Shown: one piece after another, positions 181 through 12,607 of the stretch
Layout of the letters: every line of letters begins with the position of its first letter
Numbering within the stretch: position 1 is the stretch's first letter
IMG/VR virus record: IMGVR_UViG_2695420412_000012
From: a virus
Lineage: Duplodnaviria > Heunggongvirae > Uroviricota > Caudoviricetes
Length of the DNA stretch: 12,607 nucleotides
Strand: one strand, 5' to 3'
Notes under the pieces: model-generated
The model's input: the letters and a program-made list of their open reading frames with translations, nothing else
What the model was told of the DNA's origin: nothing
The model's database searches: none
Made by a program: the position numbers and the translations under genes

Positions 181-276
181 AAGAAATGAAAAAAGGCCAC
201 GCAGTTGCGCAGCCTGATAAACCCTGGTTAAAATCCACACGATAACAACACAACAATATCAGTATCTCATGCTATT

Positions 277-301
277 GCCCGAACCCATTCGGGCATTTTT
301 T
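277..301 (+). terminator. Rho-independent terminator (gcccgaa-ccca-ttcgggc followed by attttttacc)
   Basis: 7-bp GC-rich stem, 4-nt loop, then a T-run on the + strand. Confidence 0.55.
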
Positions 302-307
302 ACCCAT

Positions 308-338
308 AAAAAATGCCCCTCCGGAGAGGGGCATTTTT
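308..338. terminator. Bidirectional rho-independent terminator (A-run, atgcccctc-cgga-gaggggcat, T-run)
   Basis: Perfect 9-bp stem flanked by an A-run upstream and a T-run downstream, so it can terminate either strand. It would end the leftward (minus) late/accessory transcript. Confidence 0.65.
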
Positions 339-535
339 GCATGCACATTCTTTTTCTTGCATGGTGCCGGGTGCCTCCCGGTGAATTCAGTATCAGCACC
401 TGAATCCGCGATTATCACATATACCTACTTGCTGATTGCCCCTCCGCACAGGGGGATTCACCATGCAGTAGTATTTTTAATAAACAGCAAATAAAAAAAT
501 CAAGCATTATGCAGGCTGTTTCTTTTTATCACCGG

Positions 536-1263: not shown

Positions 1264-2085
1264 CTATCTGGTCACCTTTTTCAGTTGTTGTTCTGCCCAT
1301 GCTTCTTCAATATCAAACTGCACCACCAGCGTATCGTAAAAACGTTTAACTGTTTTTTTCCATGTATCAAGAGATATGGCATCGGTTACATTACATATGG
1401 CATTAAATGCCTCCGTTGAAGGTAATCTTTCATAGCCACGACCACCACAACGCTGGCAGTCTCTGATAACAGGCATACCACGTTTTACCGACTCTTCACG
1501 ATGAATGGCAACACCGCGCCCACGACAATCTTTACAGGCGGTGGAAACCTCCCCCTTCCCTCCACACTCCGGACAGGCAACTTTTACCACCTCCCTGACT
1601 TTTTTCCATTCCTCCCAGTAAGACGGATACACGCCTTTTGTGCACTTTGCCCACACTGGCGGCTTACCATCCGGATACTGGATCTTGTTTGTAAAAACCT
1701 CGCTTTCAATAAATTTTTTTCCGTGACAACAGGGGCACTGTTTTTTGCTCGCCGCGCTACGGGCATAATCTTCAAACGCATACGAAGCCATAATACGCAT
1801 CACTGCCGGTTTTATTTCTGCCGGGAGTTTTCTTAACGCCGCCACGCGATCACACCGACTGAGTGCATATTCTGTCAGCAATTCTGTTGCCCGCTCTCTG
1901 TCATTCATACTAATGCCCATTTTCCCAAGGAACGCAGAAAACCCCATCTCAGCCCAATTCTGTGTCATGCCCTGCGCGGCCATCACATCAGTGATACTCA
2001 GCGTATCTTTCGACGTTGAGGCCGATGCATCAGTCAGGCCGAGGGATTTTGGGGAGTAGTATTTCGGTAAATCTTCCAGTTTCAT
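1264..2085 (-). CDS. Q: Late-gene antiterminator Q (lambda Q family, 273 aa, with multiple CxxC zinc-binding pairs)
   Basis: ATG at 2083-2085. N-terminus ...YSPKS...TDVMAAQGM... and C-terminus ...LPSTEAFNAI...VKRFYDTLVVQ parallel lambda Q. Cys pairs CPCCHG, CPECGG, CKDCRG, CQRCGG. Followed by the pR'-like promoter. Confidence 0.9.
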   Translation of the reverse strand: MKLEDLPKYYSPKSLGLTDASASTSKDTLSITDVMAAQGMTQNWAEMGFSAFLGKMGISMNDRERATELLTEYALSRCDRVAALRKLPAEIKPAVMRIMASYAFEDYARSAASKKQCPCCHGKKFIESEVFTNKIQYPDGKPPVWAKCTKGVYPSYWEEWKKVREVVKVACPECGGKGEVSTACKDCRGRGVAIHREESVKRGMPVIRDCQRCGGRGYERLPSTEAFNAICNVTDAISLDTWKKTVKRFYDTLVVQFDIEEAWAEQQLKKVTR

Positions 2086-2456
2086 TTTTTGACCTGCCCT
2101 TCAAGCATTATGGGGTAAATCTTCCCCCCCAGACGTCCACCAGATACTGGCTGACCACGAACGATATTGATTTCATCAAACTGCTCATCGTCCATTAACA
2201 CTCCCGCATGCGTCAGCGCATCCAGCGGTGCTTTCAGGATATTGTCCAGGTCGCGACGACGCTTATCCGGTGGCTCCACAATAATCCTGATCGCCAGCCT
2301 TCCGGACAGATTTAATTTCAGTCGCTGCTGGCGAACAATAAGCGCCACATCACGGCGATAACGCTCACCGGCTTTTGATACAAAATATGTGCTGCCACGA
2401 CGTCGCCAGTAGGTGTTCACCGTCGGCGGGTAAGGCAAAACAAACTCTATACGCAT
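2082..2456 (-). CDS. rusA: RusA Holliday-junction resolvase (124 aa)
   Basis: ATG at 2454-2456. Motif [15 protein letters not shown] ... [30 protein letters not shown] is typical of the RusA family. Its stop overlaps the Q start (ATGA). Confidence 0.9.
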   Translation of the reverse strand: MRIEFVLPYPPTVNTYWRRRGSTYFVSKAGERYRRDVALIVRQQRLKLNLSGRLAIRIIVEPPDKRRRDLDNILKAPLDALTHAGVLMDDEQFDEINIVRGQPVSGGRLGGKIYPIMLEGQVKK

Positions 2457-2468
2457 CAGTAACCCCTT

Positions 2469-3500
2469 TTACCCAAGCACGCCGGTTGCAAAGGCGTGAT
2501 CAAGAAAACGAAAAATTAAATCAACCTGAGAACCATGCTTTTCTTCGAACGCCAGCGGATCCGCATGAAGCTCGTTGTGATGCTCCCGACACAGCGGTAG
2601 CGTGAAAATATCGTGGGATTTTGTTCCCATTCCGCCCTGACCATGACCAATCAGGTGATGGGGATCGTCGGCTGGCTTACTACAACACGCACACGGCTGT
2701 GTCTTCACCCAGCGTGTGTATTTCTCGTTAACCCAGCGGCGACGTTTAGGTCGTTTCATGAAAGATTCCGGAGACTCAGGATCAACGGCAATGCTGACCA
2801 CCGTCTTTTCCTGTGGTGGGTTCTGTTGCTGGTGGGCGTGAGGCAGCGGCGCAAGATTTTTTGTGCGCTGTTTCAGTATGCTGGTGGCGGTCTGCTCTCC
2901 CGGTACGATGTCGCTTTCACGGTACATTGAGCGGATTTTTTCTGCACGCAACCCCAGCGAACGACGTAATACCGCTTCCGGTAGCGCGTCCGCCACCTGA
3001 TTGCGGACCGCCCACCAGGATAATTCAGCCAAAGATAATTCACGCTCCTGCGTACCGCTTATTGCGTGACCAGGCGGCTTACCATCCGGATACTGGATCT
3101 TGTTTGTAAAAACCTCGCTTTCAATAAATTTTTTTCCGTGACAACAGGGGCACTGTTTTTTGCTCGCCGCGCTACGGGCATAATCTTCAAACGCATACGA
3201 AGCCATAATACGCATCACTGCCGGTTTTATTTCTGCCGGGAGTTTTCTTAACGCCGCCACGCGATCACACCGACTGAGTGCATATTCTGTCAGCAATTCT
3301 GTTGCCCGCTCTCTGTCATTCATACTAATGCCCATTTTCCCAAGGAACGCAGAAAACCCCATCTCAGCCCAATTCTGTGTCATGCCCTGCGCGGCCATCA
3401 CATCAGTGATACTCAGCGTATCTTTCGACGTTGAGGCCGATGCATCAGTCAGGCCGAGGGATTTTGGGGAGTAGTATTTCGGTAAATCTTCCAGTTTCAT
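2469..3500 (-). CDS. Chimeric in-frame ORF: Q N-terminal 143 codons fused to the C-terminal ~200 codons of the YdfU-like protein
   Basis: 3072-3500 matches the 5' part of Q at 1657-2085; 2469-3071 matches the 3' part of the 349-aa gene at 6204-6806. The breakpoint is at 3071/3072 (gtgacc|aggcggcttacc). The 343-aa ORF reads through it. Confidence 0.7.
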   Translation of the reverse strand: MKLEDLPKYYSPKSLGLTDASASTSKDTLSITDVMAAQGMTQNWAEMGFSAFLGKMGISMNDRERATELLTEYALSRCDRVAALRKLPAEIKPAVMRIMASYAFEDYARSAASKKQCPCCHGKKFIESEVFTNKIQYPDGKPPGHAISGTQERELSLAELSWWAVRNQVADALPEAVLRRSLGLRAEKIRSMYRESDIVPGEQTATSILKQRTKNLAPLPHAHQQQNPPQEKTVVSIAVDPESPESFMKRPKRRRWVNEKYTRWVKTQPCACCSKPADDPHHLIGHGQGGMGTKSHDIFTLPLCREHHNELHADPLAFEEKHGSQVDLIFRFLDHAFATGVLG

Positions 3501-3871
3501 TTTTTGACCTGCCCTTCAAGCATTATGGGGTAAATCTTCCCCCCCAGACGTCCACCAGATACTGGCTGACCACGAACGATATTGATTTCATCAAACTGCT
3601 CATCGTCCATTAACACTCCCGCATGCGTCAGCGCATCCAGCGGTGCTTTCAGGATATTGTCCAGGTCGCGACGACGCTTATCCGGTGGCTCTGCAATCAC
3701 CTTTATCGCCAGCCTTCCGGACAGGATTAATTTCAGCCGCTGCTGGCGAACAATAAGCGCCACAGCCCGGCGATAACGCTTTCCCTCCTCCGAGATAAAA
3801 TATGTGCTGCCACGACGTCGCCAGTAGGTGTTCACCGTTGGCGGGTAAGGTAAAACCAAATCTATGAGCAT
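3497..3871 (-). CDS. rusA: RusA resolvase, divergent copy (124 aa, MLIDLVLPYPP...)
   Basis: ATG at 3869-3871. Same family motifs as the other two copies but with several substitutions (N-terminus, IKVIAEPP, KRYRRAVALIV). Confidence 0.9.
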   Translation of the reverse strand: MLIDLVLPYPPTVNTYWRRRGSTYFISEEGKRYRRAVALIVRQQRLKLILSGRLAIKVIAEPPDKRRRDLDNILKAPLDALTHAGVLMDDEQFDEINIVRGQPVSGGRLGGKIYPIMLEGQVKK

Positions 3872-3883
3872 CAGTCACCTCTT

Positions 3884-4933
3884 TTACCCAAGCACGCCAG
3901 TTGCAAAGGCGTGATCAAGAAAACGAAAAATTAAATCAACCTGAGAGCCATGCTTTTCTTCGAACGCCAGCGGATCCGCATGAAGCTCGTTGTGATGCTC
4001 CCGACACAGCGGTAGCGTGAAAATATCGTGAGATTTTGTCCCCATTCCGCCCTGACCATGACCAATCAGGTGATGGGGATCGTCGGCTGGCTTACCACAA
4101 CACGCACACGGCTGAGTCTTCACCCAGCGTGTGTATTTCTCGTTAACCCAGCGGCGACGTTTAGGTCGTTTCATGAAAGATTCCGGAGACTCAGGATCAA
4201 CGGCAATGCTGACCACCGTCTTTTCCTGTGGTGGGTTCTGTTGCTGGTGGGCGTGAGGCAACGGTGCAAGATTTTTTGTGCGCTGTTTCAATATGCTGGT
4301 GGCGGTCTGCTCTCCCGGTACGATGTCGCTTTCGCGGTACACCGAGCAGATTTTTTCCGCTGGTAATCCCAGCGAGCGACGTAATACCGCTTCCGGTAGC
4401 GCGTCCGCCAGCTGATTGCGGACCGCCCACCAGGATAATTCAGCCAGAGATAATTCACGCTCCTGCGTACCGCTTATTGCGTGACCGATGACGTCAATCA
4501 TCCATGCTGACAGGTTTTGATGAGCAAGTTGCTCGAGTGATTCGGATGTCTGGTCACGCAGCTGGTTGTCGCAGTGCCAGCACAACACCATTGCGCCGGT
4601 ACCATATCGGTGAATAACGGTTTCGCTGTGATGATAATCGCCGTGTGGCCACTGGCAGGATTTAATATGGCGCAACAGCCAGTCAGACAATGCACCAGCA
4701 CCACCAGCAGCACGAATTACCCGTGCGTTACTGAAAAACGGCAGCAATGTTTTGTCTTCCACCAGCGGCTGGCGAACGGCAGGAACGACCCCGGACGGCA
4801 GATTACGCATGCTTTTCGGTTCCGGCTCCACCAGTAACCGGGTATTGTGGAATACCGGCATGGATTCACGGCCCGGCTTAACGATCACCAGCCCGAGTTC
4901 CGGTACCAGAACAGGTCGAAGTAATACCCGCAC
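3884..4933 (-). CDS. YdfU-like 349-aa protein with two Cys/His clusters (DUF968-type, putative HNH-like nuclease), divergent copy
   Basis: GTG at 4931-4933 with GGAGG 4 nt upstream. Cys/His clusters CQWPHGDYHH...CWHCDN and CACC...HHLIGHGQGG...CREHHNELH. Length and position (between a small gene and rusA/Q) match Qin prophage YdfU as I recall it. Confidence 0.8.
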   Translation of the reverse strand: MRVLLRPVLVPELGLVIVKPGRESMPVFHNTRLLVEPEPKSMRNLPSGVVPAVRQPLVEDKTLLPFFSNARVIRAAGGAGALSDWLLRHIKSCQWPHGDYHHSETVIHRYGTGAMVLCWHCDNQLRDQTSESLEQLAHQNLSAWMIDVIGHAISGTQERELSLAELSWWAVRNQLADALPEAVLRRSLGLPAEKICSVYRESDIVPGEQTATSILKQRTKNLAPLPHAHQQQNPPQEKTVVSIAVDPESPESFMKRPKRRRWVNEKYTRWVKTQPCACCGKPADDPHHLIGHGQGGMGTKSHDIFTLPLCREHHNELHADPLAFEEKHGSQVDLIFRFLDHAFATGVLG

Positions 4934-4934
4934 G

Positions 4935-5213
4935 TTACCTCCAGATGCGTTGCTGGAATGTGCGGGACGGACGCGGTGGGCGTTCGGAGTAAGGAAGCCT
5001 GACGGAGATTATCCAGTGACGGTAGTCGAGGCTAAGGGCTTTTTTAACCTCGTATCCGCGCCTGCGGTAACACTGAATTATCCATTCAGCCTGCTCTTCA
5101 GTGCATGGTGGATGCTGGAACCAGTCCGATTTGAATGCATGAAAACGCCGTCCGCACCTGCTGGCAAAGACGGCAGAATCATCAGAATTGTGTAATTTGG
5201 TATCGTGCGCCAT
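4935..5213 (-). CDS. Small protein (92 aa, MAHDTKLHNSDD...) in the position of Qin rem
   Basis: ATG at 5211-5213. Its stop abuts the GTG of the 349-aa gene. Second copy at 7255-7527. The longer 129-aa track ORF is an upstream extension without support. Confidence 0.55.
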   Translation of the reverse strand: MAHDTKLHNSDDSAVFASRCGRRFHAFKSDWFQHPPCTEEQAEWIIQCYRRRGYEVKKALSLDYRHWIISVRLPYSERPPRPSRTFQQRIWR

Positions 5214-5399
5214 CGGTTGTCTCTTCTGGCGCAGCAGGTGCCAGTTGTTCAGGCTGGCGTATAAAGTATAAATAAACTGGTTCCAGTGTAAAGCCCCTAC
5301 ATTAATGGAATAAAAGTCAAACAACAGATTGCTGGGATAAACACAACGCTTATTATTAAAAGCGATTAGATAAATTAAATTTTAATGTTATGCAATTTT

Positions 5400-5570
5400 A
5401 GGTAATGACTCCAACTTATTGATAGTGTTTTATGTTCAGATAATGCCCGATGACTTTGTCATGCAGCTCCACCGATTTTGAGAACGACAGCGACTTCCGT
5501 CCCAGCCGTGCCAGGTGCTGCCTCAGATTCAGGTTATGCCGCTCAATTCGCTGCGTATATCGCTTGCTGA
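5400..5570 (-). mobile_element. insB: IS1 remnant: right terminal inverted repeat plus the 3' end of insB, 171 bp
   Basis: ggtaatgactccaacttattgatagtg... is the IS1 terminal IR. The encoded tail ...[47 protein letters not shown] is the InsB C-terminus. IS1 identity stops at 5570, where Q sequence begins. Confidence 0.9.
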
Positions 5571-5820
5571 ACGCCGCCACACGATCGCACCGACTGAGTG
5601 CATAATCTGCCAGTAATTCTGTTGCCCGCGCCCTGTCATTCATACTGATGCCCATTTTCCCCAGGAACGCAGAAAACCCCATCTCAGCCCGATTCTGTGT
5701 CATGCCCTGCGCGGCCATCACATCAGTGATACTCAGCGCATCTTTTGACGTTGAGGCCGATGCATCGGTCAGGCAAGGGGATTTTGGGGAGTAGTATTTC
5801 GGTAAATCTTCCAGTTTCAT
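5416..5820 (-). pseudogene. Truncated Q (first ~83 codons, divergent allele) fused in frame to the insB 3' end
   Basis: 134-aa ORF: [30 protein letters not shown]...SRCDRVAA then IS1-derived [14 protein letters not shown].... Junction at 5570/5571. Confidence 0.85.
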
Positions 5821-6191
5821 TTTTTGACCTGCTCTTCATGCATTATGGGGTAAATCTTCACCCCCAGACGTCCACCAGATACTGGCTGACCACGAACGAT
5901 ATTGATTTCATCAAACTGCTCATCGTCCATTAACACTCCCGCATGCGTCAGCGCATCCAGCGGTGCTTTCAGGATATTGTCCAGGTCGCGACGACGCTTA
6001 TCCGGTGGCTCCACAATAATCCTGATCGCCAGCCTTCCGGACAGATTTAATTTCAGTCGCTGCTGGCGAACAATAAGCGCCACATCACGGCGATAACGCT
6101 CACCGGCTTTTGATACAAAATATGTGCTGCCACGACGTCGCCAGTAGGTGTTCACCGTCGGCGGGTAAGGCAAAACAAACTCTATACGCAT
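5817..6191 (-). CDS. rusA: RusA resolvase (124 aa)
   Basis: Almost identical to 2082-2456 except at the 3' end ([15 protein letters not shown]), where the overlapping Q allele differs. Confidence 0.9.
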
Positions 6192-6203
6192 CAGTAACCC
6201 CTT

Positions 6204-7253
6204 TTACCCAAGCACGCCGGTTGCAAAGGCGTGATCAAGAAAACGAAAAATTAAATCAACCTGAGAACCATGCTTTTCTTCGAACGCCAGCGGATCCGCA
6301 TGAAGCTCGTTGTGATGCTCCCGACACAGCGGTAGCGTGAAAATATCGTGGGATTTTGTTCCCATTCCGCCCTGACCATGACCAATCAGGTGATGGGGAT
6401 CGTCGGCTGGCTTACTACAACACGCACACGGCTGTGTCTTCACCCAGCGTGTGTATTTCTCGTTAACCCAGCGGCGACGTTTAGGTCGTTTCATGAAAGA
6501 TTCCGGAGACTCAGGATCAACGGCAATGCTGACCACCGTCTTTTCCTGTGGTGGGTTCTGTTGCTGGTGGGCGTGAGGCAGCGGCGCAAGATTTTTTGTG
6601 CGCTGTTTCAGTATGCTGGTGGCGGTCTGCTCTCCCGGTACGATGTCGCTTTCACGGTACATTGAGCGGATTTTTTCTGCACGCAACCCCAGCGAACGAC
6701 GTAATACCGCTTCCGGTAGCGCGTCCGCCACCTGATTGCGGACCGCCCACCAGGATAATTCAGCCAAAGATAATTCACGCTCCTGCGTACCGCTTATTGC
6801 GTGACCGATGACGTCAATCATCCATGCTGACAAGTTTTGGTGAGCAAGTTGCTCAAGTGATTCTGAGGTCTGGTCACGCAACTGGTTGTCGCAGTGCCAG
6901 CACAACACCATTGCGCCGGTACCATAACGGTGAATGACGGTTTCACTGTGGTGATAATCACCGTGTGGCCACTGGCAGGATTTAATATGGCGCAACAGCC
7001 AGTCAGACAGTGCACCAGCGCCGCCAGCAGCACGAATCACACGCTCATTGCTGAAAAATGGCAGTAATGATTTATCCTCCGCCAGCGGCTGGCGAACGGC
7101 AGGGACGACTCCGGATGGCAGGCCGCACATGCTTTTCGGTTCCGGCTCCACCAGCACTCGAGGATTATGAAATATCTGTATGGATTCACGGCCCGGCTTA
7201 AGGACCACCAGCCCAAGCTCAGGCACCAGAACAGGTCTAAGTAATACCCGCAC
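6204..7253 (-). CDS. YdfU-like 349-aa Cys/His-rich protein (DUF968-type, putative HNH-like nuclease)
   Basis: Full-length copy. Its 3' 600 bp is identical to 2469-3071. Confidence 0.8.
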   Translation of the reverse strand: MRVLLRPVLVPELGLVVLKPGRESIQIFHNPRVLVEPEPKSMCGLPSGVVPAVRQPLAEDKSLLPFFSNERVIRAAGGAGALSDWLLRHIKSCQWPHGDYHHSETVIHRYGTGAMVLCWHCDNQLRDQTSESLEQLAHQNLSAWMIDVIGHAISGTQERELSLAELSWWAVRNQVADALPEAVLRRSLGLRAEKIRSMYRESDIVPGEQTATSILKQRTKNLAPLPHAHQQQNPPQEKTVVSIAVDPESPESFMKRPKRRRWVNEKYTRWVKTQPCACCSKPADDPHHLIGHGQGGMGTKSHDIFTLPLCREHHNELHADPLAFEEKHGSQVDLIFRFLDHAFATGVLG

Positions 7254-7254
7254 G

Positions 7255-7527
7255 TTACCTCCAGATCCGTTGCTGGAAAGTGCGGGACGGACGTGGTGGG
7301 CGTTCGGAATAAGGCAGCCTGACAGAGATTATCCAGTGCCGATAGTCGAGACTGAGAGCTTTCTTAACCTCGAACCCGCGCCTGCGGTAAGAATGAATCA
7401 GCCATTCGGCCTGTTCTTCAGTACATGGTGGGTGTTGGTACCAGTCGGTTTTAAATGCGTGTGAACGCCGCTCATGCCGGATGGCAAGGTCGGTATCAGA
7501 ATTGTGAAATTTGGTTTTGTGCGCCAT
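7255..7527 (-). CDS. Small protein (90 aa, MAHKTKFHNSDTD...), rem-position gene
   Basis: ATG at 7525-7527. Paralog of 4935-5213. Confidence 0.55.
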   Translation of the reverse strand: MAHKTKFHNSDTDLAIRHERRSHAFKTDWYQHPPCTEEQAEWLIHSYRRRGFEVKKALSLDYRHWIISVRLPYSERPPRPSRTFQQRIWR

Positions 7528-7694: not shown

Positions 7695-7850
7695 TTACTC
7701 CTCAGGTTCGTAAGCTGTGAAGACAGCGACCTCCGTCTGGCCGGTTCGGATTCGTACCTCGCAGAGGTCTTTCCTCGTTACCAGTGCCGTCACTATGACG
7801 GTTAAACAGATGACGATCAGGGCGATTAACATCGCCTTTTGCTGCTTCAT
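7695..7850 (-). CDS. hok: Hok-family membrane toxin (51 aa, HokD/RelF-like)
   Basis: MKQQKAMLIALIVICLTVIVTALVTRKDLCEVRIRTGQTEVAVFTAYEPEE shows the Hok signature (TM helix, TRKxLCE, EVAxFxAYE). AAGGAG lies 9 nt upstream. An in-frame upstream ATG at 7905-7907 would give a 70-codon mok-like extension. Confidence 0.9.
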   Translation of the reverse strand: MKQQKAMLIALIVICLTVIVTALVTRKDLCEVRIRTGQTEVAVFTAYEPEE

Positions 7851-8109
7851 AGCCTGCTTCTCCTTGCCTTTCGGCACGTAAGAGGCTAACCTAGATTTGC
7901 CGTTCATAGATTGAGCCTCAGATTAATGTTAAGCGTCTTGCAGGACGCGTAATGTTAACTGGGGCTTTTCTCTATCTGCCTTTTGGTGTTCATGCCTGAG
8001 ACAGATAGCCTCAAGCACCCGCAGTCATTCTACTTAACTAAGATTTCCCCGCAAACCGTTTTTGTCCGGCACAGTAAATATCCAACTAAACCAATGGCGT
8101 TCGCTGTAT

Positions 8110-11165: not shown

Positions 11166-11236
11166 ACTCACCTCTTCTGATACCGAATCTTTTTACTCAC
11201 GAGTTGCCGGAAGCGATTCGATATGGCTATTGTCAG

Positions 11237-11662
11237 TCAATGTACTGCCACAGCATTTCCTGCCGGGCCACCACGGTTCATCTGATTGAAACCGGCGATT
11301 GCCACTGCGACAAAATCATCAGCGTCTCTCACCAGTCGCTCCCGCGTCTCCACCAGCTCCCGAAAATAAGCTGAACTGTGGCTGCGCATTCTGGCCACCA
11401 GCAAAGGTGGCATTGCCTTTTCGATCGCTGGTAACAACGCCTGAATTTTTTCAACTGCATCAGGGGTGTCTTTCTCTACCCAGCGGAAAATTTTCTGGGT
11501 ATTGCGAGCCAGGGCTTCCGGATGGCTGTCGTCATACAGTTCTGGGAACGTCATACCCAGTTCAAAATAAGCCCTGGTTATTTCAGCTGCCGGAACTTTT
11601 TCACCGTCCGGATGCGCCCAGGCATTCATCGCCATGCGGATGTGTTCATGCTTGATTTTCAT
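11237..11662 (-). CDS. YdaT-like 141-aa protein (Rac-type early gene)
   Basis: ATG at 11660-11662 with AGGAG 8 nt upstream. Overlaps the Cro-like gene by 17 nt. Same size and position as Rac YdaT, directly after the Cro-like gene. Confidence 0.65.
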   Translation of the reverse strand: MKIKHEHIRMAMNAWAHPDGEKVPAAEITRAYFELGMTFPELYDDSHPEALARNTQKIFRWVEKDTPDAVEKIQALLPAIEKAMPPLLVARMRSHSSAYFRELVETRERLVRDADDFVAVAIAGFNQMNRGGPAGNAVAVH

Positions 11663-11927
11663 GAATCAAGCTCCTAGAAAGTGGTTGTGTTAACGTTTTG
11701 GTATCTTCCAGCTCGGGCCAAATATTCATCCAATCAAAAGGCCTTAGTTGCTGACGTGTAACTTCACCATTACTGGCTCGCTCAATAAGGACGCATAACG
11801 ATGCCCCTAACACTTGACCTTTACTCAATGCCTTTCTTAGATAACCGATGCTGGTACCACACTCGCATGCAAACATACGCTGTTCATCTGACGAAAGAGA
11901 ATTGAGAAATATTCTTAATTCTTCCAT
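11646..11927 (-). CDS. Cro/YdaS-like HTH regulator (93 aa)
   Basis: ATG at 11925-11927 with AAGGAG 5 nt upstream. HTH-like segment CGTSIGYLRKALSKGQ. Divergent from the repressor gene across the operator region. Confidence 0.7.
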   Translation of the reverse strand: MEELRIFLNSLSSDEQRMFACECGTSIGYLRKALSKGQVLGASLCVLIERASNGEVTRQQLRPFDWMNIWPELEDTKTLTQPLSRSLIHENQA

Positions 11928-11954
11928 AGCTACTCCTTAGTAAACACAGTAAAG

Positions 11955-11991
11955 AATACCCACAGGTAAACAAAAGTCAATACCCACAGGT
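11955..11991. promoter_or_regulatory. Operator-like direct repeats (aatacccacaggt twice, centres 24 bp apart) in the divergent repressor/cro intergenic region
   Basis: Exact 13-mers at 11955-11967 and 11979-11991. An inverted repeat aggtaaacaa / ttgtttacct flanks the second copy. Confidence 0.6.
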
Positions 11992-12027
11992 TGTTTACCT
12001 TGCGGTAATCGCATCTATTATTTACCT

Positions 12028-12447
12028 ATGGACAAATATGAATTTAGACGACAGCAACTCATCAAAATTCGTGATGAGAAATGCGATGGTAAAGCGGTTA
12101 ACGTGGCCAGAAAGATCGGGCGCGAGCCTTCTTATGTATCAAGAATGTTGTACCCAGAGGGGAAAAAGGGAAAAAAACGGATCGCTGATGATATGGTGGA
12201 GATTATCGAAGAGTCCTTTGGGTTACCCCGGGGATGGATGGATGGTATCGTTTCATCATCAACGAACACAGCCTCCAGTTATGAAACAAGGGTTCTAACG
12301 CCACGACAACGTATTTTTTTAGATCTCTTAGACGAACTGCCAGAAAGTGAAGCGGATAACTTATTAAAAACTCTTGAAGAGAAAAAACAGTATTACAATA
12401 TGATCTACGAAGAAATCCGTAAAAAGAAAGCACAAAACGCATCATAG
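12028..12447 (+). CDS. Prophage repressor-like HTH protein (139 aa, RacR/CI-position)
   Basis: ATG at 12028. HTH-like segment KAVNVARKIGREPSYVSRML. It is the only clear + strand gene and is divergent from the cro-like gene. No obvious S24 peptidase motifs. Confidence 0.7.
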   Translation: MDKYEFRRQQLIKIRDEKCDGKAVNVARKIGREPSYVSRMLYPEGKKGKKRIADDMVEIIEESFGLPRGWMDGIVSSSTNTASSYETRVLTPRQRIFLDLLDELPESEADNLLKTLEEKKQYYNMIYEEIRKKKAQNAS

Positions 12448-12483
12448 CTCACCAAACAACTAGTCACCAGTTAAGACACCGCA

Positions 12484-12520
12484 AAAAGTTACCCATGGGT
12501 ATTTACTTTTTAAATACCTA
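12484..12520. promoter_or_regulatory. Second pair of operator-like sites (acccatgggtat and acctatgggtat, 25 bp apart) downstream of the repressor gene
   Basis: Palindromic acccatgggt at 12484-12495 and a near-copy at 12509-12520. Both are related to the reverse complement of the 11955 motif (acctgtgggtat). Confidence 0.5.
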
Positions 12521-12607
12521 TGGGTATCCTTCTTTTCATACCAACCCACCCCGCCCCACAGAATGCAGGGCAATACTTCGAGTTACCAGGCAGTGGTCAG
12601 GGGTTAA

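Follow-up and report, generated by a model that had tools for sequence, protein, structure and literature searches.

What are the repeats on either side of a small repressor gene in an Escherichia coli prophage, and which protein do they serve? The question was raised by a stretch of 12,607 nucleotides (nt) of Caudoviricetes DNA (IMG/VR record IMGVR_UViG_2695420412_000012; this whole stretch is called the window below), in which a gene for a 139-amino-acid (aa) repressor lies between two clusters of short palindromes. A sequence-only reading had likened these clusters to the right operator (OR) and left operator (OL) around lambda cI. The window is part of an E. coli lambdoid (Qin/Rac-like) prophage, and many complete genomes, NZ_CP019029 among them, match its bases 11200-12607 with 100% identity. 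Our comparison of sequences indicates that the repeats are very probably the operators of the immunity region of this lambdoid (Qin/Rac-type) prophage, with three OR sites and two OL sites. Positions prefixed with L001 refer to a locus from an identical genome that extends past the window; they equal the window position minus 5199.

Operator-like sites around the repressor gene and in related loci

The sites, and the two genes that frame the intergenic region, are the following.

11646-11927, minus strand: cro-like gene, 93 aa, with a YdaS-like helix-turn-helix (HTH), PHROG 35
11956-11969: OR1, ATACCCACAGGTAA, core TACCCACAGGTA at 11957-11968, 71 bp upstream of the repressor ATG
11980-11993: OR2, ATACCCACAGGTTG, left half perfect and right half degenerate, at 24 bp from OR1 and 15 bp from OR3
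11995-12008: OR3, TTACCTTGCGGTAA, core at 11996-12007 (L001 6797-6808), 32 bp upstream of the ATG
12028-12447, plus strand: repressor gene, 139 aa, PHROG 5736 (E 4e-70)
12489-12502: OL1, TTACCCATGGGTAT, core at 12490-12501
12514-12527: OL2, ATACCTATGGGTAT, core at 12515-12526, its right edge merging into a -10-like hexamer

Two exact 13-mers (AATACCCACAGGT) had been reported between the cro-like and repressor genes, and we found them at 11955-11967 and 11979-11991. They are 24 bp apart and the 3' sites 25 bp apart, which agrees with the spacing of 24-25 bp given before. Both palindromes 3' of the repressor gene exist as well, but the second one overruns the proposed end of the region, 12520, by 7 nt. 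The proposed common half-site ATACC/GGTAT was borne out insofar as the sites fit TACC-N4-GGTA, whereas the right half of the second 13-mer is degenerate (GGTTG). Similarly, the exact identity of the two 13-mers is real but incidental: the centres are CGCA versus CATA in a 91%-identical relative, with the half-sites kept. The sequence-only reading had counted two sites between the genes and had missed OR3, which is a better palindrome than the second 13-mer (OR2) and holds the second perfect core between the genes. The 100-bp region between the divergent genes thus holds OR1, OR2 and OR3. The OL pair starts 41 bp past the repressor stop codon, the OR and OL clusters are 533 bp apart, and the two modules are mutual inverted repeats over 20-24 nt.

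Two further candidates were discarded. The sequence TTACCTATGGACAA, at 12022-12035 on the repressor start codon, has two core mismatches and is not conserved in the family, and it was not counted. Its left half-site and centre are good, however, and it shares 86% identity with the left portion of OL2; it could represent either weak autoregulation specific to this allele or a match by chance. The other candidate, for a third OL site, was an ATACC half-site at 12538-12542, 24 bp past OL2, which lacks a partner half-site as well as conservation.

We then compared the frequency of the motif with expectation. Allowing at most one mismatch, ATACCNNNNGGTAT matched three times in the window compared to 0.16 expected, and none of 200 shuffles gave three matches. 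A search of the whole 39.3-kb NZ_CP019029 prophage, which had been suggested as a check, returned the core TACCNNNNGGTA exactly four times (two between the divergent genes and two after the repressor gene), all at the two clusters, compared to 0.59 from shuffles. Cores with one mismatch were not enriched (10 observed versus 14.5 expected).

The motif was subsequently tracked with the DNA-binding domain of the repressor. The sample comprised 32 loci (200.6 kb): 29 loci from a scan with an alignment of the domain (one genome per species), two cultured E. coli phages (mEp043 and CharmingMan) and the window. The 29 species loci come from Enterobacterales, Aeromonas, Burkholderiales, Ferrovum, Hydrogenophilaceae, Xanthobacteraceae and Stenotrophomonas. 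Five further loci with short repressors brought the total to 37. An additional scan of viral contigs with the N-terminal 86 aa gave 80 loci, all 99-100% identical in the matched segment, and was abandoned for want of comparative power. The 32 loci contain 94 exact cores, compared to 2.9 expected, of which 48 are upstream of the repressor ATG and 46 downstream. They are distributed as follows.

-70 to -76 from the ATG: 27 exact cores
-31 to -36 from the ATG: 17 exact cores
-53 from the ATG: 1 exact core
OR sites of phage CharmingMan: 3 exact cores, tabled as "other" since the gene start had been placed 9 nt too early
Downstream, both members of a pair exact and spaced 24-26 bp: 38 exact cores
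Downstream, single: 8 exact cores; the partner has one or two mismatches in six loci, the pair of locus L104 is spaced 24 bp with one mismatch, and one core in CharmingMan is intragenic

An exact core of the OR1 class (-70 to -76) was present in 27 of the 32 loci, in CharmingMan (L004) once its start was corrected, and in all five further loci. The OR3 class (-31 to -36) was present in 17/32 loci, with the L004 site at -33 as one more, and in four of the five further loci. OR2 follows the family consensus CAATACCcacaGGttATTTAC in 23 loci, with an OR1-OR2 spacing of 25 bp in 18 and 24 bp in 5. From start to start, OR2 and OR3 are 15 bp apart in every measurable locus (23/23), so that two 14-bp sites are separated by 1 bp (L002, L004, L085-L113). 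Downstream, an OL pair in which both cores have at most one mismatch was found in 23/32 loci, spaced 25 bp (18 loci), 26 bp (4 loci) or 24 bp (1 locus). The five further short-repressor loci match the same site map, and stray exact cores amount to only two in all 37 loci, one inside the CharmingMan repressor gene (L004 3443) and one at +801 in L117.

The half-sites are invariant across loci, in contrast to the central 4 bp and the flanks, which vary freely. From 533 bp in the window, the shortest among 23 measurable loci, the OR-OL distance extends up to 2640 bp, and the intervening genes differ. Invariant half-sites amid drifting surroundings argue for a constraint on binding sites and not for simple shared ancestry. 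A cro homologue lies divergently upstream in 26 of 31 related loci. Five Klebsiella loci have no Cro homologue; OR2 is also absent from them, and OR1, OR3 and OL are kept. Therefore, the sites follow the DNA-binding domain of the repressor. The OR/OL-like layout proposed earlier is thus supported by this tracking over 37 loci at fixed positions. It is also backed by the overlap with promoter hexamers, by a heteroimmune cassette and by a gene order like that of Qin dicC-dicA-dicBp and lambda cro-cI-PL.

Putative promoters, repressor domains and the predicted switch

Three promoter-like sequences coincide with the sites: counterparts of the lambda right promoter (PR), of the promoter for repressor maintenance (PRM) and of the left promoter (PL).

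11953-11980, minus strand: PR-like promoter, -35 TTGACT (11980-11975), 16-bp spacer, -10 TATTCT (11958-11953); L001 6781-6754
11994-12021, plus strand: PRM-like promoter, -35 TTTACC, 16-bp spacer, -10 TATTAT
12502-12530, plus strand: PL/dicBp-like promoter, -35 TTTACT (12502-12507), 17-bp spacer, -10 TATCCT (12525-12530)

The PR-like and PRM-like promoters each had 9/12 matches in the promoter scan. The PR -35 hexamer abuts or overlaps OR2 and the -10 overlaps OR1, and the family consensus is arranged likewise. OR3 overlaps the -35 hexamer of the PRM-like promoter, whose -10 ends 6 nt upstream of the repressor ATG with no Shine-Dalgarno sequence between them; this arrangement suggests a leaderless repressor mRNA. 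A TAnnnT hexamer ending 6-7 nt upstream of the ATG was seen in 19/32 loci, and no Shine-Dalgarno-like sequence was found upstream of the repressor ATG in any of the 32. On the other side of the gene, the PL region reads GGTA-TTTACT-N17-TATCCT, with OL1 and OL2 over its -35 and -10 in the same register as in PR. Moreover, this register is shared through the inverted-repeat arms I1 and I3 (79-85%) and is also that of the annotated putative PL of phage mEp043. The family consensus at PL is TACCnnnnGGTATtga ... TACCnnnnGGTAt..TT, in which the right edge of OL1 merges into the -35 hexamer, and the consensus GGTATtga places PR and PL in a shared register with the sites.

The PL-like promoter reads rightward and faces a plus-strand operon, ydfC-dicF-dicB-exo-int, which lies beyond the window. 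In the identical genome, DicF gives an Rfam match at L001 8506-8557, 1.2 kb downstream. Judged by its gene content, this is the early-left operon and the probable equivalent of the one served by dicBp in Qin. Directly after PL, a leader of about 160 nt (L001 7345-7503; window 12544-12607 and beyond) is 98.7% identical to phage Tritos (L003 3468-3626). A 28-nt piece of it (ccgctaccccggcgttaagggga...) also occurs upstream of ydfA in Qin (L114 2971-2998), and the leader may act in the dicBF transcript as a nut-like or processing element. Between OL and ydfC, just past the end of the window, a small gene for a putative zinc-binding protein of the ECs_2282 family (L001 7653-7853, minus strand) lies antisense inside the predicted PL transcript; its strand also carries a consensus-like promoter, TCGAGA-16-TACAAT, at L001 7870-7843.

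Comparison with Tritos also delimited the block to which the sites belong.

11675-12543, 869 bp: heteroimmune cassette relative to phage Tritos (cro, OR, repressor, OL/PL), from blastn of L001 against L003

Identity of 96% ends at L001 6475 (window 11674), and identity of 98.7% resumes at L001 7345 (window 12544), 17 nt past OL2 and approximately at the predicted PL transcription start. Inside the cassette, the only Tritos match is a 76% patch in the C-terminal coding part of the repressor gene, and all five operator sites lie within the 869 bp. This break in homology from cro to PL points to cro, OR, repressor and OL/PL as one exchangeable immunity cassette. At least 80% of it is held by 822 of 5426 complete E. 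coli genomes (about 15%). In the Tritos CI itself, similarity is confined to the C-terminal part (39.5% identity over aa 21-139), and Tritos lacks TACC-N4-GGTA sites.

We next investigated the repressor. PHROG places the 139-aa protein among transcriptional regulators (PHROG 5736). A Pfam search gave no match at E <= 0.01 and no PF00717, and a PDB sequence search returned nothing significant, the best match (ADAR Z-alpha, E 0.076) being taken as noise. An AlphaFold2 (AF2) model from a single sequence reached a predicted local distance difference test score (pLDDT) of only 52 and was dropped for a model built on a 57-sequence alignment (pLDDT 86.5). The latter has helices at 3-18, 23-30, 34-40 (HTH) and 54-63. 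The protein consists of an N-terminal HTH domain (aa 1-75), a disordered linker (77-87) and a C-terminal helical hairpin (92-138). Foldseek with this model ranked the antirepressor-controlled repressor of Salmonella phage SPC32H (5d50) first (E 1e-3), followed by weaker matches to XRE-type HTH proteins, namely, C-proteins, HigA and SinR (E 0.1-0.5); TM-scores normalised by target length were at most 0.71.

In tblastn against phage genomes, aa 1-86 were 65% identical to mEp043 cI and about 65% identical to the CharmingMan protein. The segment aa 89-134 aligned with aa 84-129 of DicA (33% identity, 61% positives, E 1e-7), and the DNA of this C-terminal part matched, at 75-81%, genes annotated "helix-turn-helix domain-containing protein" in many E. 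coli genomes. These similarities indicate that the repressor is a chimera, with an HTH domain of the mEp043-cI type and a non-cleavable C-terminal domain like that of DicA. A search of 5.8 billion proteins was consistent with such an exchange: the N-terminal domain (invariant core REPSYVSRMLYPEGKKGKKRIADDM) is joined to a short C-terminal part in some proteins (133-145 aa in total) and to an S24 peptidase domain (PF00717) in others (219-242 aa) from Salmonella, Edwardsiella, Yersinia, Klebsiella, Pantoea and others. PF00717 is carried by most other homologues of this DNA-binding domain (219-242 aa). The 139-aa protein has the traits of the short DicA and Gifsy repressors, namely, an N-terminal HTH without an S24 peptidase or Ala-Gly cleavage module. 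Some 135-136-aa database proteins (P0015, P0016 and related ones) start with MNLDDSNSSKF..., which corresponds to a +1-frame open reading frame at 12038-12298, before passing into the repressor frame; they resemble products of repressor genes that carry a frameshift or were wrongly called in some E. coli genomes. Operators of phage 933W have no bearing here, since mEp043 cI resembles 933W cI in the C-terminal domain only and the N-terminal domain gave no 933W match.

If the repeats are operators, the switch would work as follows. A repressor dimer would bind 14-bp sites of the form (A/T)TACC-N4-GGTA(A/T). At OR1-OR2 it would cover the -10 and -35 of PR and silence the minus-strand cro-like/ydaT operon, and at OL1-OL2 it would cover the -35 and -10 of the PL/dicBp-type promoter and silence the early-left genes ydfC, dicF, dicB, exonuclease and integrase. 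Occupancy of OR3, on the PRM -35, would turn off the repressor's own promoter, whose transcript is predicted to start at or beside the repressor ATG and hence to be leaderless. The cro-like protein would use the same sites with the opposite preference. Induction would proceed via an antirepressor instead of RecA-stimulated cleavage, because the DicA-like C-terminal domain replaces the S24 peptidase domain; by analogy, this should be the route, as for DicA/Rem and the Gifsy repressors (PMC10448788, PMC3121763). At a distance of 15 bp, OR2 and OR3 abut on different helix faces, which suggests cooperativity within the 24-25-bp pairs and not between these two sites. The looping raised in the sequence-only reading is permitted by the layout, with pairs 24-25 bp apart and clusters 533 bp apart.

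Alternative readings of the repeats

Several points weigh against assigning the repeats to the repressor as OR and OL. The related loci share ancestry and are not independent samples, and the searched literature holds no binding experiment for the 139-aa repressor or its family. The PL hexamers are weak (8/12, under the scanner threshold of 9) and PL was read from the sequence. The promoter scan as a whole gave three hits compared to 2.8 in shuffled sequence, which is no excess; therefore, the promoter calls rest on position and conservation and not on the scan score. As to the induction route, tblastn with K-12 Rem, the one antirepressor queried, against the window and L001 had a best E of 0.27, and the window has no LexA box (CTGT-N8-ACAG). 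Finally, the OL pair fits the pattern of an intrinsic terminator.

12490-12536, plus strand: terminator-like RNA hairpin from OL1 and OL2, 16-bp stem and 5-nt loop, followed by UCCUUCUUUU

The 3' pair could thus primarily be the Rho-independent terminator of the repressor transcript, its likeness to OR being secondary; in a weaker form, it would be OL/PL as DNA and a terminator in RNA reading through from PRM. The terminator scan found the 16-pair stem, the 5-nt loop and the tail TCCTTCTTTT at 12490-12536, and the RNA fold of -24.1 kcal/mol (z = -4.8) was not equalled by any of 200 shuffles. Between the stop codon at 12447 and the toxic dicF/dicB operon there is no second terminator; in mEp043, CharmingMan and the Serratia locus L117, by contrast, a canonical terminator distinct from OL lies upstream of it. 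Moreover, the hairpin is still perfect in the 91%-identical relatives L119 and L120, where the centres have become CACA and TGTG. However, two similar palindromes are complementary to each other anyway and their YRYR centres can pair, so that a hairpin would arise without selection. L119, L120, L116 and most family members lack the T-run, and termination leaves unexplained the half-sites identical to those of OR, the fixed spacing of 25-26 bp and the -35 and -10 hexamers in register. We therefore consider this explanation improbable; in this allele the pair may additionally act as a terminator, a role that cannot replace the operator reading. A more elaborate arrangement, which we regard as conceivable though doubtful, would give the 38-bp OL both tasks, as a two-site operator/PL in DNA and as the sole terminator of the leaderless repressor RNA. 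Bound repressor would then silence PL and, by roadblock plus hairpin, halt PRM read-through into dicF/dicB, and a small OR-OL loop of 533 bp would form via the DicA-type helical domain.

It is also very unlikely that the sites serve a protein other than the 139-aa one, be it the cro-like YdaS-type protein alone, the YdaT/CII-like protein or a host factor. A Cro homologue does co-occur with the motif in those 26 of 31 loci, OR2 is found only where Cro is present, and Cro binds the same operators in lambda-type switches. Yet OR1, OR3 and OL persist in the five Klebsiella loci without it. In place of YdaT, mEp043 and most other loci carry lambda-type CII or other genes, and the YdaT site of CP-933P is a different one, TTGATTN6AATCAA (PMC9986795). 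The only protein common to all loci is the DNA-binding domain, which was itself the query that found them. That the repeats are chance matches or neutral relics of shared ancestry is scarcely credible. In favour of this view, the sites are short and homology links the modules of the related loci. However, the 94 exact cores in 200 kb exceed the 2.9 expected, only one of them lies neither at OR nor 3' of the repressor gene, and 38 stand in exact pairs. The same holds within the whole prophage (four versus 0.59), and the half-sites are invariant while centres, flanks and intervening genes vary. Operators of the immunity region thus remain the preferred reading of the five sites.

Neighbouring genes, known systems and meaning

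The early-right side of the locus continues with one more gene in the same operon.

11237-11662, minus strand: YdaT/CII-like gene, 141 aa, second gene of the early-right operon

Its product matches Pfam PF06254 (YdaT_toxin) at 39.6 bits compared to a cut-off of 21 and belongs to PHROG 163, CII-like activator. The gene lies mostly beyond the heteroimmune cassette and is 96% identical to Tritos. The 93-aa cro-like protein was assigned to PHROG 35 (transcriptional repressor) with an E of 5e-23, had a weak Pfam YdaS_toxin (PF15943) score of 25.8 bits, under the gathering cut-off of 30, and is 73% identical to gp51, the protein in the Cro position of mEp043. The 39.3-kb prophage of NZ_CP019029 adjoins tRNA-Ser and mtfA. 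Its cargo includes Q, RusA, DUF968, hokD, a YdaT-family gene, a "transcriptional regulator" and the 139-aa "hypothetical protein", after which come ydfC, dicB, DUF1482, exonuclease and integrase.

Further features were observed elsewhere in the window. Positions 1264-7527 hold three tandem, partly diverged DUF968-like copies of 343-349 aa (2469-3500, 3884-4933 and 6204-7253), along with which a RusA-like gene of 124 aa is repeated (2082-2456, 3497-3871 and 5817-6191); another partial copy lies at 1264-2085. The copies recur at spacings of 1415 and 2320 bp and share 100% and 93% identity over 300 nt. Only one DUF968/RusA pair is annotated in the strain identical over 11200-12607, and either genuine amplification or faulty assembly might account for the tandem copies. 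Three RNAs passed the Rfam gathering score, namely, a sok antitoxin RNA of a hokD-type hok/sok module (7845-8020, minus strand), the small RNA STnc100 (302-492, minus strand) and AgvB, an anti-GcvB small RNA (240-301, plus strand).

We compared the locus with known immunity regions. In lambda, as here, a tripartite OR contains divergent PR and PRM, the repressor mRNA is leaderless (a prediction in our case), and the cassette is bounded by PL and cro; a second operator cluster covers PL beyond the repressor gene, in the same direction as the repressor. OR1 and OR2 of lambda are also 24 bp apart, and the 24-25 bp within both the OR1-OR2 and the OL1-OL2 pair match the lambda spacing. In contrast, lambda OR2 and OR3 are 23 bp apart, compared to a much tighter 15 bp here, and lambda OR and OL are separated by about 2.4 kb, compared to 533 bp. 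The site sequence differs as well, the sites are 14 bp long here with two in OL, and the 139-aa repressor lacks the S24 cleavage/oligomerisation domain.

The region dicC-dicA-dicBp of Qin in E. coli K-12, with DicA as repressor and DicC as Cro analogue (PMC10448788), has the same gene order. The downstream operon is also as here (ydfC, dicF, dicB and DUF1482/ydfD), except that ydfA and ydfB are replaced in our locus. DicA resembles the 139-aa repressor in being short, in lacking a peptidase domain and in its homologous C-terminal 46 aa. As here, the Qin operators lie between the divergent genes and about 40 bp past the repressor stop, over the dicB-operon promoter; three OL sites were reported for DicA, compared to two here (PMC10448788). 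However, the DNA-binding domains are unrelated at the sequence level, only the C-terminal part aligning, and no TACC-N4-GGTA is found around dicA (L114), where the dicBp region reads TGTTAGCTATAGCATACA. Qin also has Rem, of which no homologue was found in the window.

CP-933P of E. coli O157:H7, with PaaR2, YdaS and YdaT (Jurenas et al. 2021, PMC8630535), likewise places a cro-like gene followed by YdaT opposite a small repressor, leaderless there and predicted to be so here. Its OR lies in an intergenic region of about 100 bp and its PL/OL past the repressor operon, as here, and both lambda cI and paaR2 are precedents for a leaderless repressor mRNA (PMC8630535). The operators differ, being 18-bp palindromes of the GTTTAGTAA type (PMC8630535) and not TACC-N4-GGTA. 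CP-933P also has paaA2-parE2 after the repressor, whereas no toxin-antitoxin genes are annotated there in the strain identical to the window. The structure of CP-933P YdaT has been described (PMC9986795).

Among phages with the same DNA-binding domain, mEp043 (NC_019706, annotation only) has three OR sites spaced as here and two OL sites 25 bp apart under what its depositors called "putative PL". Its cI is 228 aa long, compared to 139 aa here, with a C-terminal part annotated as similar to 933W cI, and it is probably SOS-cleavable, by analogy with the PF00717 domain of most other long homologues. It also differs in having lambda-type CII and N and an extra gene plus a canonical terminator between cI and OL. 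CharmingMan has three OR sites spaced as in the window and two sites downstream of the repressor gene, 25-26 bp apart. In the literature searched, which is incomplete, we found no published description of the operator sequence here or in mEp043. The Gifsy proteins GfoR and GtgR are non-cleavable repressors with antirepressors (PMC3121763). Together with SPC32H Rep-Ant (PDB 5d50), they resemble the present repressor in their size of about 136-139 aa and in having no autocleavage motif, but neither an antirepressor (queried with K-12 Rem) nor a LexA box was identified in the window.

The architecture and mechanism are textbook and would not surprise a specialist. Distinct here are the operator sequence, the count of three plus two sites, the abutting OR2 and OR3, the very short OR-OL distance and the domain chimera. 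For a repressor domain that escapes Pfam and occurs in phages and prophages of alpha-, beta- and gamma-proteobacteria, the comparison provides a site map and an operator code, (A/T)TACC-N4-GGTA(A/T). The OR-OL loop, if true, would be unusually small, with four strong sites, and would form without a lambda-type C-terminal domain. The family offers a natural domain swap, in which a constant DNA-binding domain and operator set are combined with an S24 (SOS-cleavable) or a DicA-like, non-cleavable domain, a change that would affect induction and not targets. With the site map, cross-immunity can be predicted, for instance towards phage mEp043, and immunity regions of prophages can be annotated better. 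In the strains that carry it, the module is predicted to control the cell-division inhibitors DicF and DicB.

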